From Alphaproteobacteria bacterium (GTDB taxonomy: Bacteria; Pseudomonadota; Alphaproteobacteria; Sphingomonadales; Sphingomonadaceae): a stretch of 64,000 nucleotides of DNA. Within the stretch, counting starts at the first letter, position 1; each line of letters opens with the position of its first letter. The stretch spans positions 40,150 to 104,149 of the forward strand of contig JAHJHL010000044.1 in the NCBI GenBank assembly GCA_018823905.1, read 5' to 3'. The notes under the pieces were generated by a model. That model was given only the letters and a program-made list of their open reading frames with translations. It had not been told where the DNA came from and did no database searches. This document shows, one piece after another, positions 55,713-64,000 of the stretch. The translations under genes were made by a program, and so were the position numbers.

Positions 55713-55730
55713 TTCGCTCGACACGAACGG
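55713..55730. repeat. Half copy of the 56610-56678 palindromic repeat
   Basis: ttcgctcgacacgaacgg is the exact reverse complement of ccgttcgtgtcgagcgaa at 56610. Confidence 0.75.
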
Positions 55731-55744
55731 AAATGGCGCGCGCG

Positions 55745-56596
55745 TCAGTCCGCCAACGACAAAATATGCCTCGCCTGTTTAAGGTGCGGGGCATCGACCA
55801 TCTTGCCATCGACCTGAAGCACCCCGACCCCCGGATTGGCGGCAAAGGCATCAACGATTGCCTGCGCGCGCGAAACGTCGTCGGCGCTGGGGGTGAAGGC
55901 GGCGTTGATCGCCTCCACCTGTGCCGGATGGATCGCCATCATGCCGGTAAAGCCATCGCGCCGCGCGCGGGCGGCGTACGCCGCGAGTCCCGCCTCGTCC
56001 TTGATCGCCGGGAACACCGTATCGATCGCGGCGACGCTCGCGGCGTGGGCAGCGAAGAGCGTCAGCGCGCGGGCGACGTCATAGGGCGCGGTGTAGCTGC
56101 CATCGGCCTCGCGGCTTGTCGTCGCACCGATCGCGGCGGGCAGGTCTTCGGCGCCCCAGGTGAGCCCGAGCAGGCGGTCTTTCGCCTCGCGATAGCTGCC
56201 GAGGGTGAAGATCGCCGCCGCGGTCTCGGTCGCGATCGGCAGGATGGGGGGCAGCGACGCGTCGACCGCGCCTTCGCTGCGCAAAATTAAATCGAGCTGC
56301 GCGATGCTCGGCGCGCCTTCGGCCTTGGGCAACATGATCGCATCGGGTCGGGCGGCAATAATCGCGGCGACATCAGCGGCGGTCATATGCCCGTCGAGCG
56401 GATTGACGCGCACCAGCGTGAAGACTTCGCGTGCGCCCGCCAGATAATCGGCGATCGCATGCCGCGCGGCGTCCTTGTTCGCGAGCGACACCGAATCCTC
56501 GAGATCGAGGATGATCGCATCGGCGCCCGATGCCGCCGCCTTGGCAAAGCGTTCGGGGCGGTCGCCGGGGACGAAGAGGAGGGAACGTAATCGCAT
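55745..56596 (-). CDS. CitE-like CoA-ester lyase (HpcH/HpaI family)
   Basis: RSLLFVPGDRPERFAKA, DLEDSV, VRVN, MLPK, IATET, WGAEDL, GFTGMMAIHP and GKMVDAPH. Confidence 0.9.
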   Translation of the reverse strand: MRLRSLLFVPGDRPERFAKAAASGADAIILDLEDSVSLANKDAARHAIADYLAGAREVFTLVRVNPLDGHMTAADVAAIIAARPDAIMLPKAEGAPSIAQLDLILRSEGAVDASLPPILPIATETAAAIFTLGSYREAKDRLLGLTWGAEDLPAAIGATTSREADGSYTAPYDVARALTLFAAHAASVAAIDTVFPAIKDEAGLAAYAARARRDGFTGMMAIHPAQVEAINAAFTPSADDVSRAQAIVDAFAANPGVGVLQVDGKMVDAPHLKQARHILSLAD

Positions 56597-56609
56597 GTGC
56601 TTACCTATG

Positions 56610-56678
56610 CCGTTCGTGTCGAGCGAAGTCGAGACACGTGCGGGGCAAAGGGTTCTCGACTTCGCTCGAACCGAACGG
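56610..56678. repeat. REP-like palindromic element (ccgttcg...cgaacgg)
   Basis: Arms ccgttcgtgtcgagcgaagtcgaga / tctcgacttcgctcgaaccgaacgg between MaoC and the CoA-ester lyase. Confidence 0.85.
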
Positions 56679-56682
56679 GGAT

Positions 56683-57132
56683 CTATGGTTTCCGGTGGAC
56701 AAGCGTCGAACGCTCGCACTGGCAGACAAGTTCATCACGCTGGTTGATGCAGCGGTGGAGGAAGGTGACGATCCCGGCGTTCGGGCGCGATTTCGATTCT
56801 TTCAGCCCGATGACCTCGCTCTCCGCGCGCAGCGTGTCGCCGATGAACACCGGTTTGGGCATCACCAGCTTGTCATAGCCAAGGTTGGCGACCAGCGTGC
56901 CGAGCGTCGTGTCACCGACCGACAGCCCGACCATCAGGCTGAACGTAAAGGTGCCGTTGACAAGGATCTGGCCGAATTCCGACGCCTTCGCCGCCTCGAC
57001 GTCGAGATGCAGCGGCTGCGGATTGTGCGTCATCACCGTGAACAGCAGATTGTCAGTCTCGGTCACCGTGCGGCGAATGTCGTGGGTCAGCGTATCGCCG
57101 ATGGTCCATTCGTCGAAGAAGCGACCCGCCAT
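56683..57132 (-). CDS. MaoC-family (R)-specific enoyl-CoA hydratase
   Basis: [34 protein letters not shown] and PVFIGDTL. Confidence 0.92.
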
Positions 57133-57143
57133 TATTTGAAACT

Positions 57144-57229
57144 CCGTTCGCCCTGAGCTTGTCGAAGGGCCGTTCTTGGTTGCGATGTTAGAAGGAAGGA
57201 CGGTGCTTCGACAAGCTCAGCACAAACGG
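57144..57229. repeat. REP-like palindromic element (ccgttcgccctgagcttgtcgaag...cttcgacaagctcagcacaaacgg)
   Basis: Long imperfect inverted arms between the carboxylase alpha subunit and MaoC. Confidence 0.85.
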
Positions 57230-57238
57230 GGAGGGGTG

Positions 57239-59077
57239 TCATTCTTCCTTCTCAATCCGCACCAGCAACGCCTCAACCTGCACCTGCGCGCCTGCGGTCG
57301 CATTGAGCTCGGCCACCACGCCGTCGAACGGCGCGGTCAGGCTATGCTCCATCTTCATCGCTTCGAGGGTGAGCAATTTCTGGCCTTTGGTCACTGTGTC
57401 GCCCGCAGCGACTTCGACCGCAATTACTTTGCCGGGCATAGGCGAAAGGATGGCGCCGTCGCCAGCTGCTCCGCCCGCGCCGCCCGCGGCGCGCCAAGGG
57501 GTGAGTTGCCACACGGAACCGCCTTCGGCGACGAGCATTGCAGGTACCGGTTCGTCGGTGCCGGGGCCGTGCAGGTCGACCTCGACACGCTTTCCATCGA
57601 GCAGAAAGGCTGCGGAGCGCACGTCGGGTGCGTTGAGACGGAAACCCGCCTGCAGCGAGTGCGGGACGATCGCCATCGCGGCGTTGGTGAGGGCTTCGAT
57701 CGTGGGAGCGGGCTCTTCGGTCATCGCATCGCCATCGCGGCCGATGAGCCCGGTATCGACGGTGCCTGCCACGAAGTCTTGATGAGCGAGCGCATTGATC
57801 AGGAAGGCCGAATTGGTCTTCACCGGCCAGATCGCGCTGTCCTCCAGCATCTCCGACAGCAGCTCGCGCGCTTCCTCACGATCGTCGCCATAAGCGATAA
57901 CCTTAGCGATCATCGGGTCATAGAAGGGCGAGACTCCGGCGCCTTCATAAACGCCGGTGTCGACGCGGCCGAGGTGCTCGGGAAGCTGGAACAGTTCGAG
58001 CGTGCCGATCGACGGCAGGAAACCCTTGGCGGGATCCTCGGCATAAAGCCGCGCTTCCATCGCCCAGCCGTTGATCGACAGCTCCTCCTGCCGCAGCGGC
58101 AACACCTCACCGCTCGCCACCCGCAATTGCCACTCAACCAGATCGACCCCGGTGATCTCCTCGGTCACGGGATGCTCGACCTGCAACCGCGTGTTCATTT
58201 CCATGAACCAGATGCGGTCGGCGCGCAGGCCTTCGCTGGCGTCGGCGATAAATTCGATCGTCCCGGCGCCGACATAATCGACCGCCTGCGCCGCGCGCAC
58301 CGCGGCGGCGCACAGCGCTTCGCGGGTGACCTCGTCCATGCCGGGGGCAGGGGCTTCTTCGATCACCTTCTGGTGGCGGCGTTGCAGCGAGCAGTCGCGC
58401 TCGAACAAATGGACGACATTGCCGTGGGTGTCGCCGAACACCTGCACCTCGATATGGCGCGGGGTCAGGATATATTTCTCGATCAGCACATGATCGTTGC
58501 CGAACGAGGCCGCCGCCTCGCGCTGGCATGAGGCGAGCGCGTCGATGAAGTCGGGCGCGGCATCGACCTTGCGCATCCCCTTGCCGCCGCCGCCCGCGAC
58601 CGCCTTGATCAGGACCGGATAGCCGATTTCGGCGGCGCGCTCGGCGAGGAAGGCGGGGTCCTGGTTTTCGCCCATATAGCCGGGAGTGACGGACACGCCG
58701 GCTTCGGCCATTAGCTTCTTCGCGGCGTCCTTAAGCCCCATCGCGGTGATCGACGAAGGATTCGGCCCGACCCACACGAGCCCCGCGTCGGCGACCGCCT
58801 GCGCGAACTCGGCATTTTCGGAGAGGAAGCCGTAACCCGGATGGATCGCCTCGGCTCCCGTCGCCTTGGCAGCAGCAATGATCTTTTCGCCGACCAGATA
58901 GGATTCGCGCGCTGGCGACGGGCCGATGTGGACGGCCTCGTCGGCCTGCCGGACATGCAGCGCCTTGGCGTCGGCATCCGAATAGACCGCAACGGTCCGA
59001 ATGCCCATCTCGCGCGCAGTGCGGATGATGCGGCAGGCGATCTCGCCGCGATTGGCGATGAGCAGGGATTGGATCAT
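57239..59077 (-). CDS. liuD: 3-methylcrotonyl-CoA carboxylase biotin carboxylase/BCCP subunit
   Basis: LIANRGEIACR, IHPGYGFLSEN, KAVAGGGGKGMR, ERDCSLQRRHQK, EMNTRLQVEHPVTE and biotin site EAMKME. Confidence 0.92.
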   Translation of the reverse strand: MIQSLLIANRGEIACRIIRTAREMGIRTVAVYSDADAKALHVRQADEAVHIGPSPARESYLVGEKIIAAAKATGAEAIHPGYGFLSENAEFAQAVADAGLVWVGPNPSSITAMGLKDAAKKLMAEAGVSVTPGYMGENQDPAFLAERAAEIGYPVLIKAVAGGGGKGMRKVDAAPDFIDALASCQREAAASFGNDHVLIEKYILTPRHIEVQVFGDTHGNVVHLFERDCSLQRRHQKVIEEAPAPGMDEVTREALCAAAVRAAQAVDYVGAGTIEFIADASEGLRADRIWFMEMNTRLQVEHPVTEEITGVDLVEWQLRVASGEVLPLRQEELSINGWAMEARLYAEDPAKGFLPSIGTLELFQLPEHLGRVDTGVYEGAGVSPFYDPMIAKVIAYGDDREEARELLSEMLEDSAIWPVKTNSAFLINALAHQDFVAGTVDTGLIGRDGDAMTEEPAPTIEALTNAAMAIVPHSLQAGFRLNAPDVRSAAFLLDGKRVEVDLHGPGTDEPVPAMLVAEGGSVWQLTPWRAAGGAGGAAGDGAILSPMPGKVIAVEVAAGDTVTKGQKLLTLEAMKMEHSLTAPFDGVVAELNATAGAQVQVEALLVRIEKEE

Positions 59078-59571
59078 AGCCGGTCCTCCCCGGATCGGGG
59101 AGAGGGACCATCCGAAGGATGGTGGAGGGGCCGCAAGCTATCGGCCAAAGCGAGGATGGATTGCGCTGTCGCCGCCGCATCCTTTAAAACATCAACAGCC
59201 GCTATCCGCACGATGTGCCATCCTCTCTCGTTTAAAATCCTGTCGCGCCGCGCGTCTCGTTCCGGGCGATCGGTCAAATCATGCGCCAGTCCATCAACCT
59301 CGACGAGCAATCGAACTTCGACACATGCAAAATCGGCGATGTAGTCGAGCACAGGAAACTGACGCCGAAATTTCAGTCCGGTCCGCTTGCCACGCAACTC
59401 GCGCCACAACAGCCCTTCTGGCAACGTCATTTCCCGTCGCAGCTTGCGCGCAAGCTTCACCGTCTTTGCAGGCGCGCCCACCGTCCGACGCCGCACCCGC
59501 CCTAATTCCTCCCCGGAACGGGGAGGGGGACCGCCCGAAGGGTGGTGGAGGGGCCGAGCGCTATCGGTCAT
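59074..59571 (-). CDS. DUF559/Vsr-like endonuclease domain protein embedded in repeats
   Basis: ARKLRREMT.PE.LLW..LR...KFRRQ.P...YIADF......LLVEVDG..H......RDARRD..L...GW...R. Stop overlaps the liuD ATG. An alternative GTG start is at 59481. Confidence 0.85.
   Translation of the reverse strand: MTDSARPLHHPSGGPPPRSGEELGRVRRRTVGAPAKTVKLARKLRREMTLPEGLLWRELRGKRTGLKFRRQFPVLDYIADFACVEVRLLVEVDGLAHDLTDRPERDARRDRILNERGWHIVRIAAVDVLKDAAATAQSILALADSLRPLHHPSDGPSPRSGEDRL
59084..59147. repeat. Direct repeat R1 (double GAA/GAT-loop hairpin REP)
   Basis: tcctccccggatcggggagagggaccatccgaaggatggtggaggggccgcaagctatcggcca; 55/64 identical to R2 by manual alignment. Confidence 0.9.
59507..59570. repeat. Direct repeat R2
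   Basis: tcctccccggaacggggagggggaccgcccgaagggtggtggaggggccgagcgctatcggtca. Confidence 0.9.
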
Positions 59572-59599
59572 TCACATGCTTTGGATGGCGAGGTTCCGA

Positions 59600-59646
59600 C
59601 CCCTCCGTCACCGCTTCGCGGCGCCACCTCCCCGTTCCGGGGAGGG
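59600..59646. repeat. Inverted repeat copy R3 (pairs with R2)
   Basis: Reverse complement contains cctccccggaacggggaggtggcgccgcgaagcggtgacggagggg. Confidence 0.88.
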
Positions 59647-59667
59647 ACAAATATGAGGCCGCCATGA

Positions 59668-61266
59668 TCACATCCTGAACACGCCGAACCCGCGGTCCTC
59701 GACCGGGGCGTTCAGCGTTGCGGCAAAAGCCAGCCCGAGCACGTCGCGCGTCTGCGCGGGGTCGATGATGCCGTCGTCCCACAGGCGCGCGGTCGCGTGG
59801 TACGGGTTGCCTTCGTCCTCGTATTTCTGGCGGATCGGCGCCTTGAAGGCTTCGGCTTCCTCGGGTGTCCATTTGTCGGCGTCGCGGTGGACCGTCGCCA
59901 GCACTGATGCTGCCTGTTCGCCGCCCATCACGCTGATCCGCGCATTGGGCCAGGTGAACAGCAAACGTGGGGAATAAGCGCGGCCACACATGCCGTAATT
60001 GCCGGCGCCGAAGCTGCCGCCGATCAGCACCGTGACCTTGGGCACCGTCGCAGTCGCGACCGCGGTCACCAGCTTGGCGCCATGCTTGGCGATGCCCTCG
60101 GCCTCATATTTGCCGCCGACCATGAAGCCGCTGATGTTCTGGAGGAAGAGCAGGGGGATGCGGCGTTGCTGCGCCAGTTCGATGAAATGCGCGCCCTTGA
60201 CCGCGGATTCGCTGAACAGCACGCCGTTGTTGGCGAGGATCGCGACGGGGATGCCCCAGATGTGCGCGAAACCGCAGACCAGCGTGCTGCCGTAATTGGC
60301 CTTGAACTCATGAAACTCGCTGGCGTCGACGATGCGCGCGATTACCTCATGCACATCATAGGGGGCGCGGACATCGTCGGGAACGACGCCGTAGAGCTGC
60401 TCGGGGTCATATTTGGGCGGGCGCGGATCTTTCAGCGCGACATCGAAGCCGGCGTCGGCGCCCAGATGGCTGACGATGTCACGCACGATCGTCAGCGCAT
60501 GCTCGTCATTCTCGGCGAGATGATCGACGACCCCCGACTTGCGCGCATGCAGGTCGCCGCCGCCGAGATCCTCGGCGCTGATTTCTTCCCCCGTCGCGGC
60601 TTTCACCAGCGGCGGACCGGCGAGGAAGATCGTGCCCTGATTGCGGACGATCACCGTCTCGTCGCTCATCGCGGGGACATAGGCGCCGCCCGCGGTGCAG
60701 CTGCCCATCACGCACGCGATTTGCGGGATACGCCGTGCCGACATATTGGCCTGGTTGAAAAAGATGCGCCCGAAATGGTCGCGGTCGGGAAACACCTGGT
60801 CCTGATGCGGCAGGTTCGCGCCGCCGCTGTCGACGAGGTAGATGCACGGCAGGCGATTTTCGAGCGCGATCTCCTGCGCGCGCAAATGCTTTTTCACGGT
60901 CAGCGGGTAGTAGGTGCCGCCCTTCACCGTCGCGTCGTTGCACACGATCATGCACTGGCGCCCCGACACCCGCCCGATGCCGCAGATTAGCCCTGCGCCC
61001 GGGACTTCGCCGTCATAGAGGTCGTTCGCCGCCAGCTGGCCGATTTCGAGAAAGGGCGATCCGGGGTCGAGCAGCCGTTCAACGCGTTCGCGCGGCAGCA
61101 GCTTGCCGCGGCTGGTGTGGCGCTCGCGTGATTTTTCGTTGCCGCCGAGCGCTGCTTCGGCGACGCGCGCCCATAATTCGTCTTTCAGCGCGCGGTTGTG
61201 CGCGGCGCGGATGCGAAACTCGTCGCTGTCGGGATCGACATTGGTGCCAAGGACCGGTGCGCTCAC
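59668..61266 (-). CDS. liuB: 3-methylcrotonyl-CoA carboxylase carboxyltransferase subunit
   Basis: [48 protein letters not shown] and [16 protein letters not shown]. Confidence 0.93.
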
Positions 61267-61556
61267 TGTAAAGTCTCTCCCCGCTTTTCGTCCGGATGCT
61301 CCGGTTTATCTTTCAGGATCAGGTAACGATAGACGCCGATCGCATTGATGATCAGCAGCGCGATATTCTGCCAACCGATACCTTCGCTGTCAGGTTGCAA
61401 AAAGCCCCATGCGATCAGTGCGATGCTGCTGGTGACAAAGATGACAAAGGCCCAGCCAGTGCGGCGGCGGCCGAGGTTCAGCGACACGATCAACGCCGCG
61501 AGCGTCGCGGCGCCCGCACCATAATATTGCAGGGCGGTGAGTAGCGTGTCGTTCAC
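61263..61556 (-). CDS. Small 3-TM membrane protein
   Basis: GTG 61556 overlaps the upstream stop, and its stop overlaps the liuB start. Hydrophobic helices. Confidence 0.7.
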
Positions 61557-61903
61557 GCCGCCGCGCCCAAGATCGCAAGCACGCCCGACGTGGTCAGGAT
61601 CGGCCAGCCGATGTGACGTCCGCGGGTATAGACGGCGTCGAACAATCCCACCGCGGTCCAAACCCCACCAACCAGCAGGATCAGACCGCGCGGCGTGCCG
61701 GGCCAGATAACGGTCGCGGCCGATACCAGCATCAACACCGACATTGCGTGCCAGGCAAAGCGAAACACCCTGCGCGCCAGATCGACCGCCATGATCCCTT
61801 GATCGAGCGCGAGCAGCGGCTGGATCAATCTTTTCTCGCCCAGCGCGCCATGCACCAAGGCCGTCGTCGCCATAAAGGCCGCCGACAGCCAGAGCCAGAT
61901 CAC
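61553..61903 (-). CDS. Small 4-TM membrane protein
   Basis: GTG 61903 overlaps the liuA stop (GTGA). Carries VHGALGE, FAWH and RHIGW conserved-looking His residues. Confidence 0.72.
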   Translation of the reverse strand: MIWLWLSAAFMATTALVHGALGEKRLIQPLLALDQGIMAVDLARRVFRFAWHAMSVLMLVSAATVIWPGTPRGLILLVGGVWTAVGLFDAVYTRGRHIGWPILTTSGVLAILGAAA

Positions 61904-63069
61904 GCGCCGGCGCCGATCAGTTCGCGGCCGATCAGCATCCGGCGGATCTCGTTGGTCCCCGCGCCGATGTCGAGCAGTTTGGCGTCGCGCCAATAGCGTT
62001 CGACCGGCCAGTCCTTGGTATAGCCCGCGCCGCCGAGCGCCTGGATCGCTTCGCCTGCGACCTTCACGGCATTTTCGCTCGCTAGAAGGATACAACCCGC
62101 GGCGTCGAAGCGGGTCGTCTGTCCCGCATCGCACGCCTTGGCGACGTTATAGACGTAGGAGCGCGCCGACTGGAGCATGACATACATGTCGGCAACCTTG
62201 GCCTGCATCAGCTGGAACGACCCGATCGGCTTGCCGAACTGCTTGCGATCGCGGACATAGGGGATGACGGTATCGAGGCACGCCTGCATGATGCCGAGCT
62301 GGAGCCCGGCGAGCACGACGCGCTCATAGTCGAGCCCCGACATCAGCACGCCGACGCCGCCATTTTTCGGCCCCATCACCTGCTCTTCGGAGACTTCGCA
62401 ATCGTTGAAAACGAGCTCGGCGGTCGGCGAGCCGCGCATCCCGACCTTGTCGATCTTTTGCCCGATGCTGAACCCCGGCATATCCTTTTCGATAAGGAAA
62501 GCGGTGATGCCGCGCGATCCTGCTTCGGGGCTGGTCTTGGCATAGACGACCAACGTGTCGGCGTGCGTCGCGTTGGTGATCCAGAATTTGGTGCCGTTGA
62601 GGACATAGCCGCCCTGAACACGGTCGGCCTTCAGCTTCATCGACACGACGTCGCTGCCCGCGCCCGCTTCGGACATCGCAAGGCTGCCGACATGATCGCC
62701 GCTGATCAGTTTGGGCAGATACTTCGCTTTCTGGTCGGCATTGCCCCAGCGGCGGATCTGGTTGACGCAGAGGTTCGAATGGGCGCCGTAGGACAGGCCG
62801 ATAGCGCCGCTCGCGCGGCTCACTTCTTCGACCGCTATGACATGCTCGAGATAGCCGAGGCCAAGCCCGCCGAACTCTTCTTCGACGGTGATGCCGTGCA
62901 GGCCCAGATCGCCCATCTGCGTCCATAGTTCGTCGCGCGGGAACCAGTCTTCGGCGTCGGCTTTTGCAGCGAGCGGCGCGATCTGTTCGTCGGCGAAGCG
63001 AGCGGTGGTGTCGCGGATCATGTCGGCGGTTTCGCCGAGCGCGAAATCGAAGTCGGGAGTTGCGCGCAT
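61900..63069 (-). CDS. liuA: Isovaleryl-CoA dehydrogenase
   Basis: LSYGAHSNLCVNQ, SLAMSEAGAGSDVVSM, LNGTKFWITN, GLDYERVVL, ALGGAGY and IGAGTNEIRR. Confidence 0.95.
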   Translation of the reverse strand: MRATPDFDFALGETADMIRDTTARFADEQIAPLAAKADAEDWFPRDELWTQMGDLGLHGITVEEEFGGLGLGYLEHVIAVEEVSRASGAIGLSYGAHSNLCVNQIRRWGNADQKAKYLPKLISGDHVGSLAMSEAGAGSDVVSMKLKADRVQGGYVLNGTKFWITNATHADTLVVYAKTSPEAGSRGITAFLIEKDMPGFSIGQKIDKVGMRGSPTAELVFNDCEVSEEQVMGPKNGGVGVLMSGLDYERVVLAGLQLGIMQACLDTVIPYVRDRKQFGKPIGSFQLMQAKVADMYVMLQSARSYVYNVAKACDAGQTTRFDAAGCILLASENAVKVAGEAIQALGGAGYTKDWPVERYWRDAKLLDIGAGTNEIRRMLIGRELIGAGA

Positions 63070-63156: not shown

Positions 63157-63173
63157 CATAAGCAAAATCTATG
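63157..63173. promoter_or_regulatory. LysR-type recognition site CATA-N9-TATG (T-N11-A)
   Basis: cataagcaaaatctatg lies in the divergent liuA/LysR gap and overlaps the LysR start codon. Confidence 0.6.
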
Positions 63174-64000
63174 ATTAAACGCGCCCATGTCCGCCAGTTT
63201 CTCGCCGTCGTCGATGCGGGCAGTTTTACCCAAGCAGCGGCGCGGATTCGGGTGACACAGCCGGCGCTGTCGAGCGGCATTGCCGAGCTGGAAAAGCTGG
63301 TCGGCACACCGCTATTCATCCGCAACCGCCGTCAGATTCGGCTGACCGAAGCGGGCGGGCGGTTCTTGCCGATCGCACGCGATCTGGAACGCGGCTTTCG
63401 CGCCGCCGACGATTTCGGCCGCGAGGATGACCGGCAGGCGACCGAACTCAAGCTTGGCGTGATCCGATCGGTCTCAGGGGAGTTTTTGCAGGCGATTGCT
63501 ACGGCGCTGCGGCCTAGCTTTTCCATCGAGCTGATCGAGAACAGCGAATCCGAACTCCGCGCGGCGCTGGGCAGCGGACGCATCAACATGGCGCTGCTCC
63601 CGCTGCGGTCGGGCGAGCGCGGCGATCAGGTTATCCCGTTGTACGAAGAGCCGTTGGCGATGTTCATCGCCGCCGATCATACGCTCGCGGGGCGGATCGA
63701 GGTTGGCCCCGAGGAGCTCGCCGCCGAGACGATGATCGCGCGCCGTTCGTGCGAATTTCTGGATGCGACCAGCCGTTTCTTCACGCGGCACGGCGTGCGC
63801 CCGCGCTTTGCCTTGCGCAGCGAGAGCGATGAACGGTGCCTGCGGATGGTCGCCGCCGGAATCGGCATCACCACCGCGCCGGTATCGCTGGCAATCGAGG
63901 GGATCGTTCCGCTCAAGGTCGCGGGCTATGATTTCCGGCGCGAGTTGGGTTTGATCTTCGATCCGGCGTGGGCGGCCTTGCCCGACGTCGATCCGCGGCT
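63171..64000 (+). CDS. LysR-family transcriptional regulator (3'-truncated; absent from ORF track)
   Basis: MIKRAHVRQFLAVVDAGSFTQAAARIRVTQPALSSGIAELEKLVGTPLFIRNRR HTH. The frame stays open to the window end. Confidence 0.93.
   Translation, partial: MIKRAHVRQFLAVVDAGSFTQAAARIRVTQPALSSGIAELEKLVGTPLFIRNRRQIRLTEAGGRFLPIARDLERGFRAADDFGREDDRQATELKLGVIRSVSGEFLQAIATALRPSFSIELIENSESELRAALGSGRINMALLPLRSGERGDQVIPLYEEPLAMFIAADHTLAGRIEVGPEELAAETMIARRSCEFLDATSRFFTRHGVRPRFALRSESDERCLRMVAAGIGITTAPVSLAIEGIVPLKVAGYDFRRELGLIFDPAWAALPDVDPR

Follow-up and report, generated by a model that had tools for sequence, protein, structure and literature searches.

A sphingomonad liu operon with a MaoC hydratase and a CitE-like lyase in place of LiuC and LiuE: a probable leucine route through (R)-HMG-CoA

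We describe an operon in a 64,000-nucleotide stretch of an alphaproteobacterial genome of the Sphingomonadaceae (assembly GCA_018823905.1, contig JAHJHL010000044.1, positions 40,150 to 104,149), called the window throughout. On its minus strand the leucine-degradation genes liuA, liuB and liuD are followed by genes for a MaoC hydratase and a CitE-like lyase, and an earlier note on this DNA had proposed that these two stand in for LiuC and LiuE, with (R)-HMG-CoA (HMG, 3-hydroxy-3-methylglutaryl) as the intermediate.

Gene content of the operon

The features of the region, from the end of the window leftwards, are as follows (ORF, open reading frame; REP, repetitive extragenic palindrome).

63171..63998, plus strand: LysR-type regulator (PF00126 and PF03466), divergent from the operon and running past the window end
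61900..63069, minus strand: liuA (ivd), isovaleryl-CoA dehydrogenase, 389 amino acids, with acyl-CoA dehydrogenase domains
61553..61903, minus strand: small hydrophobic ORF, 116 amino acids, no family match; in Sphingopyxis only, among the loci fetched
61263..61556, minus strand: small hydrophobic ORF, 97 amino acids, no family match; recurs in 11 related loci
59668..61266, minus strand: liuB, methylcrotonyl-CoA carboxylase carboxyltransferase subunit, 532 amino acids (PF01039, E 8e-157)
59074..59571, minus strand: DUF559 nuclease-like gene (PF04480), between 64-nucleotide direct repeats
57239..59077, minus strand: liuD, biotin carboxylase and biotin carboxyl carrier protein subunit, 612 amino acids, by domain match
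57144..57229, strand not given: REP-like hairpin, with about 29 related genomic places
56683..57132, minus strand: MaoC hot-dog hydratase, 149 amino acids (PF01575, E 4e-24), candidate (R)-specific 3-methylglutaconyl-CoA hydratase
56610..56678, strand not given: REP-like hairpin, with about 70 related genomic places
55745..56596, minus strand: HpcH/CitE-like acyl-CoA lyase, 283 amino acids (PF03328, E 6e-34), candidate (R)-HMG-CoA lyase
55713-55730: element listed with the two REP-like hairpin families of the operon region

Window ORFs and Pfam matches give the minus-strand order liuA, two small hydrophobic ORFs, liuB, DUF559, liuD, MaoC and CitE-like lyase, and the carboxylase subunits, acyl-CoA dehydrogenase, MaoC protein and lyase all lie in one cluster, as in the Rv2498c-type route. 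The five enzymes thus stand as the earlier note had read them, with liuA, liuB and liuD leading to the MaoC and CitE-like genes; it had passed over both small ORFs, the DUF559 gene and the repeat hairpins. The liuA product is 74% identical to that of a Rhizobium-operon gene annotated isovaleryl-CoA dehydrogenase, that of liuB is 66-77% identical to actinobacterial AccD1-position genes, and, among named proteins, the MaoC protein has its nearest homologues in Sphingopyxis (90-97% identical), the genus of the source, a freshwater/soil bacterium. A longer, GTG-start frame for the lyase passes through a repeat and was rejected in favour of the ATG at 56596. Promoter and terminator scans yielded nothing above chance.

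The same gene order in related loci

Related loci were gathered around the 80 closest lyase homologues, 60 of them full-length, by a contig scan with the lyase alignment, which covers close relatives. Among the 60, liuB and liuD are present in 41 and a MaoC gene in 45, and not one carries liuC or an HMG-CoA lyase gene; for this reason the arrangement is not one of chance. Outside the family, the five-gene operon occurs in Ponticaulis, in one Steroidobacteraceae genome and on many Rhizobium plasmids, including p42c of Rhizobium etli CFN42 and pRL10 of R. johnstonii 3841, and neither LiuC nor LiuE was matched in the three rhizobial genomes and the Steroidobacteraceae genome checked.

The repeat hairpins are accessory, and the DUF559 gene is an accessory insertion. 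It is present in just 4 of the 60 loci, and in relatives it comes and goes between liuB and liuD. The direct repeats that flank it lie at 59084-59147 and 59507-59570, with a third, inverted copy in 59074-59646; this repeat family occupies 14-48 genomic places and is found at many contig ends. The two small hydrophobic ORFs (61263-61903) are translationally coupled within the operon, and the divergent LysR gene recurs in the family next to both operon types, the MaoC/lyase form and the liuC form.

LiuC and LiuE in the source genome

The absence of a crotonase-type hydratase and of an HMG-CoA lyase, noted earlier for the window, extends to the assembly: a search of all of it (95.6% complete) finds neither LiuC nor LiuE. 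The HMG-CoA lyase model NF004283 has zero matches in that assembly, and HMGL-like matches come from LeuA and, next to an acetaldehyde dehydrogenase, a 4-hydroxy-2-oxovalerate-aldolase-like gene, and from nothing else. As counting crotonases by Pfam was uninformative (14 matches), operon LiuC of relatives served as the query; no LiuC orthologue was found in the source genome, where the best NF004227 score is 121 bits, compared with 266 for a true operon LiuC. Operon LiuC proteins are 54-88% identical to each other and at most 37% identical to any crotonase of the source genome. The canonical liuABCDE set, with its crotonase LiuC and DRE-TIM LiuE, was not found there.

Distribution across the family

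The earlier note implied a single alphaproteobacterial case. This did not hold up: among 151 genomes of the family, with MaoC and lyase orthologues counted at E <=1e-45, both genes are present in 116, neither in 30 and a single one in 5. The pair is the majority state and the LiuC form a minority (19/151). The liuB gene, found in 135 of the 151 genomes and single-copy in each, is accompanied by the pair in 112, 73 of which are without any HMG-CoA lyase-family gene; such a gene is present in 22 of the 23 liuB genomes without the pair.

Exclusion between the pair and LiuC is complete. Operon-type LiuC, a crotonase matched best by the models PRK07468 and PRK05674 (the LiuC family), occurs in 19 of the 151 genomes. 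The pair is missing from every one of the 19, and the 116 genomes with the pair have no such crotonase. Within 20 operons of the liuC-type clade, the crotonase stands between liuB and liuD in 16/16 without the pair and is missing in 4/4 with it. In the liuB tree these four genomes are spread over separate branches with good support, giving five changes in total, at least four of them forced by starred branches. Fisher tests of the distribution (3e-8 and 1e-19) are overstated because the genomes are related; the tree count of separate swaps is the safer measure. Of all the evidence that the pair may do LiuC's work, this repeated exchange is the strongest.

Could the operon serve a different branched acyl-CoA, for example one derived from isoprenoids, rather than leucine? 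The substrate of the carboxylase is not readable from Pfam, and related MaoC-lyase pairs do occur in thiolase and lipid-degradation clusters. Against this, liuB is single-copy in each of the 135 genomes and close to the AccD1-position genes, AccD1-AccA1 is a proven methylcrotonyl-CoA carboxylase (PMC4347857), and the alternative form of the operon carries a LiuC-family crotonase. We consider another substrate exceedingly improbable.

Some other arrangements were seen in passing. One MaoC-lyase subclade (loci L114, L115, L117 and L118) lies in thiolase and acyl-CoA dehydrogenase clusters outside liu operons, and a metagenome contig (locus L124, 7001-12425) carries a crotonase-MaoC fusion, then carboxylase subunits and a convergent Rv2498c-type lyase. 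Several family genomes carry a second type of MaoC gene, about 46% identical, at a distance of some 20-27 kb from a shorter HMG-CoA lyase-family gene, and this recurring spacing suggests another large catabolic cluster.

Residues, trees and structures

The Mycobacterium tuberculosis lyase Rv2498c contacts its substrate through Arg64, Glu112, Asp138, the backbone of 136-138, Gly135, Met133 and Val181 (PMC6689899). In our alignment R63, E124, G148, A149, E150, D151 and V194 of the window lyase correspond to R64, E112, G135, A136, E137, D138 and V181 of Rv2498c. Stand-ins for the M. tuberculosis sequences were Nocardia, Microbacterium and Arthrobacter genes from clusters of the same order; the lyase from Microbacterium reaches 291 bits against 6AQ4, with the next family at 124. 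The W-G-A-E-D motif, the next loop and Val194 are common to the window lyase and these actinobacterial orthologues and are not found in RipC, which has F-G-A-A-D and Pro at the corresponding places. In a lyase tree rooted on E. coli CitE, the alphaproteobacterial proteins, together with algal ones, join the actinobacterial Rv2498c clade (92/88), and the window clade stands apart from the itaconate-type lyases. The grouping with Rv2498c orthologues has moderate support from these sequences. A second CitE-like gene of the genome (locus L017, 1477-2280) has a different motif, G-L-N-D-L, and is possibly a thioesterase-type member.

In the hydratase, D27, N28, H42 and N83 are conserved across the family, and the spacing of an N-L-G-Y segment fits Asn114/Phe117 of Rv2499c, from which we infer how the two numberings match. 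The protein is 43-48% identical to the actinobacterial orthologues. Operon-borne hydratases form a clade (100/99) that is not nested in the actinobacterial one; as the tree shows no descent from an actinobacterial gene, independent recruitment is possible. Predicted structures of both enzymes are confident (predicted local distance difference test, pLDDT, 94-96), and the hydratase structure search returned no close solved relative.

Proposed route and its alternatives

From (E)-methylglutaconyl-CoA, crotonases make (S)-HMG-CoA. MaoC hydratases, which are (R)-specific, add water to the face opposite to that used by crotonases, so that (R)-HMG-CoA would be the expected product. We propose a model in which LiuA would make 3-methylcrotonyl-CoA, LiuB/LiuD would carboxylate it to 3-methylglutaconyl-CoA, and the MaoC enzyme would hydrate the latter on the face opposite to crotonase, giving (R)-HMG-CoA, which the CitE-like, Mg-dependent lyase would cleave to acetyl-CoA and acetoacetate. 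The acetoacetate could be taken up by a 3-oxoacid CoA-transferase, the gene for which lies on another contig of the source genome. MaoC and lyase, a pair matched in stereochemistry, would thereby take the places of LiuC and LiuE. In its spatial arrangement, (R)-HMG-CoA equals the (S)-citramalyl-CoA of the Rv2498c structure (PMC6689899). Such matched handedness would call for hydratase and lyase to be exchanged jointly, which fits both their co-occurrence and the lyase-hydratase fusions described below.

We consider it likely that the operon encodes all steps of isovaleryl-CoA (leucine) degradation and that its pair turns methylglutaconyl-CoA into (R)-HMG-CoA by hydration and then splits this product; the substrates are predicted, and the (R) configuration would follow from what is known of the two enzyme families. 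The leucine route put forward in the earlier note is upheld by the gene order, the absence of LiuC and LiuE, the family-wide exclusion of LiuC with at least four swaps, and the conservation of the Rv2498c active site.

Several observations weigh against this reading. Met133 of the Rv2498c methyl pocket is Thr146 in the window lyase, and Thr or Ser across its clade. Identity to the actinobacterial Rv2498c orthologues is low (39-41%), the 92/88 link to them is unstarred, and the tree includes neither CLYBL nor malyl-CoA lyase. The lyase structure and Protein Data Bank profile search ties CLYBL, malyl-CoA lyase and Rv2498c, with RipC unseparated too. An HMG-CoA lyase-family gene is also present in 39 of the 112 liuB genomes with the pair, and NF004283 is matched in 65/80 Sphingopyxis genomes. 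The wider MaoC clade occurs in about 34/251 Alphaproteobacteria genomes, and related MaoC-lyase pairs outside the family lie in clusters of unrelated kinds, in many cases next to a high-scoring LiuE; the wider family thus has other uses too. Rv2499c has been shown solely as an itaconyl-CoA hydratase, in which Asn114 and Phe117 are important (PMC11789021), and in the literature we found no assayed enzyme of the alphaproteobacterial clade, whose roles are predicted.

The Sphingopyxis matches to NF004283, together with the unkept Met133, would suit a route through ordinary (S)-HMG-CoA, or one in which MaoC replaces LiuC only and a distant HMG-CoA lyase-family gene does the cleaving. In Sphingopyxis that gene is not a neighbour of the liu genes: it belongs to a variable island that also carries a family III CoA-transferase, a TonB receptor, and EamA or hydantoinase genes. 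In the source genome the island site holds other cargo, a different TonB receptor, and then the contig breaks. With the relatives' site for the lyase gene thus at contig ends, the absence of LiuE is unproven from this assembly alone. Four near-complete congeners with liuB and the MaoC gene, one of them 97-98% identical, have no HMG-CoA lyase-family gene, nor do 73 genomes of the family that hold liuB together with the pair. The established (R)-specificity of MaoC hydratases also speaks against an (S) intermediate, as does the finding that both tested CitE-like lyases accept only (R)-HMG-CoA (PMC6689899). We regard these alternatives as very unlikely.

Reading every NF004283 match as liuE was rejected: sphingomonad scores do not exceed 332 bits in the family sample, LiuE of other Alphaproteobacteria scores 410-480, and many of the matches lie in the CoA-transferase island. 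The island itself, present in most Sphingopyxis (for example locus L272, 2386-11222), may hold EamA, LuxR and dehydrogenase genes, or hydantoinase and isochorismatase genes.

Itaconate

The earlier note's suggestion of itaconate use finds no support at the locus, which has no CoA-transferase and no PrpD-like gene; RipA and PrpD homologues were not found in the source genome. The possibility is kept by a separate locus (L312, 4884-6884), where an Ich-like double hot-dog hydratase follows a dehydrogenase that shares 64% identity with a dehydrogenase of an itaconate-type cluster; neither a lyase nor a CoA-transferase adjoins them. The hydratase product could go to the operon lyase or to the second CitE-like gene. 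An itaconate side role of the pair would be compatible with the leucine route, and we hold it as a somewhat doubtful addition.

A stronger version has the pair mainly degrading C5 dicarboxylates (itaconyl- or mesaconyl-CoA would pass through citramalyl-CoA to pyruvate and acetyl-CoA), merely attached to the liu operon, with a generic crotonase and another lyase finishing leucine. The best NCBIfam matches of the pair are indeed RipB and RipC, though under cut-off, Rv2499c and Rv2498c have such activities (PMC11789021, PMC6689899), and the genome holds the Ich-like hydratase and its itaconate-cluster-like dehydrogenase. Against this version, no CoA-transferase, PrpD-like or RipA partners were found, the lyase falls outside the itaconate-type group of the tree, and the complete LiuC exclusion and repeated liuC loss are left unexplained. 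We judge it highly improbable.

Algal fusions and wider meaning

A profile search retrieved about 80 clusters of lyase-MaoC fusion proteins of the same clade, the named sources being Thalassiosira, Cyclotella, Skeletonema, Discostella, Conticribra, pelagophytes, Prorocentrum and Amoebophrya. The fusions keep the motifs and form one clade next to the alphaproteobacterial proteins in the lyase tree. The eight with a measurable leader have N-termini that are basic, Ser/Thr-rich and acid-poor, like mitochondrial presequences. We hypothesize that these proteins may act in leucine breakdown, which, if true, would separate the HMG-CoA of catabolism from the (S)-specific mevalonate pool. It is tempting to speculate, and we do so only tentatively, that leucine breakdown has a second widespread ending in the (R)-HMG-CoA route, used by the sphingomonad majority, on rhizobial plasmids and, fused and with a mitochondrial-type leader, in centric diatoms, pelagophytes and dinoflagellates, and that this route includes an (R)-specific methylglutaconyl-CoA hydratase.

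A non-exhaustive literature search found no description of an (R)-specific methylglutaconyl-CoA hydratase activity, no paper on the (R) route in Proteobacteria or algae or on the algal fusion, and no phenotype report for the Rhizobium operon. GapMind has leucine among the carbon sources listed with a single pathway. If our reading is true, two genes fill an annotation gap in about half of the sampled sphingomonad genomes (73/135 with the carboxylase), the missing hydratase step gains a concrete candidate, and the route gains harmless, genetically tractable hosts in R. etli CFN42 (p42c), R. johnstonii 3841 (pRL10) and Sphingopyxis.

Comparison with known systems

The pathway is already described in M. 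tuberculosis, so far the only organism in which it has been demonstrated, and the present case is an extension of it, not a new kind of system. The precedent cited in the earlier note is confirmed: Rv2498c cleaves both (R)-HMG-CoA and (S)-citramalyl-CoA and is required for growth on leucine and itaconate, the (R) route was termed unprecedented in nature in that study, and (R)-HMG-CoA specificity extends to another member of its enzyme family, P. aeruginosa PA0883 (PMC6689899). The accD1-accA1-fadE19-Rv2499c-Rv2498c cluster holds the same five enzyme families in one operon as the window does. In the window, however, the dehydrogenase comes first, not third, and is 33-37% identical to FadE19-position genes, the regulator is LysR where M. 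tuberculosis has the TetR BkaR, and no scoAB or bkd genes are attached.

Canonical liuABCDE, as in Pseudomonas, shares its first three steps with the window operon and proceeds by a crotonase LiuC and a DRE-TIM LiuE through (S)-HMG-CoA; the window has neither, and unrelated folds are proposed for both steps. RipABC and Ict-Ich-Ccl are alike in pairing a MaoC hydratase with a CitE-like lyase, with the same expected stereochemical course. The window hydratase is 44% identical to RipB and the lyase 35% identical to RipC, yet both fall far under the NCBIfam cut-offs (131 of 340 bits for RipB, 177 of 375 for RipC), and the window operon differs in having no CoA-transferase partner, a different lyase motif and a separate branch in the lyase tree. 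Finally, the lyase resembles CitE, malyl-CoA lyase and human CLYBL in fold (Z 31-32, root-mean-square deviation 2.3-3.2) and metal ligands, whereas its identity to them is about 30%, its TIGR01588 score is 174 of 443 bits and its neighbourhood holds no citD or citF.

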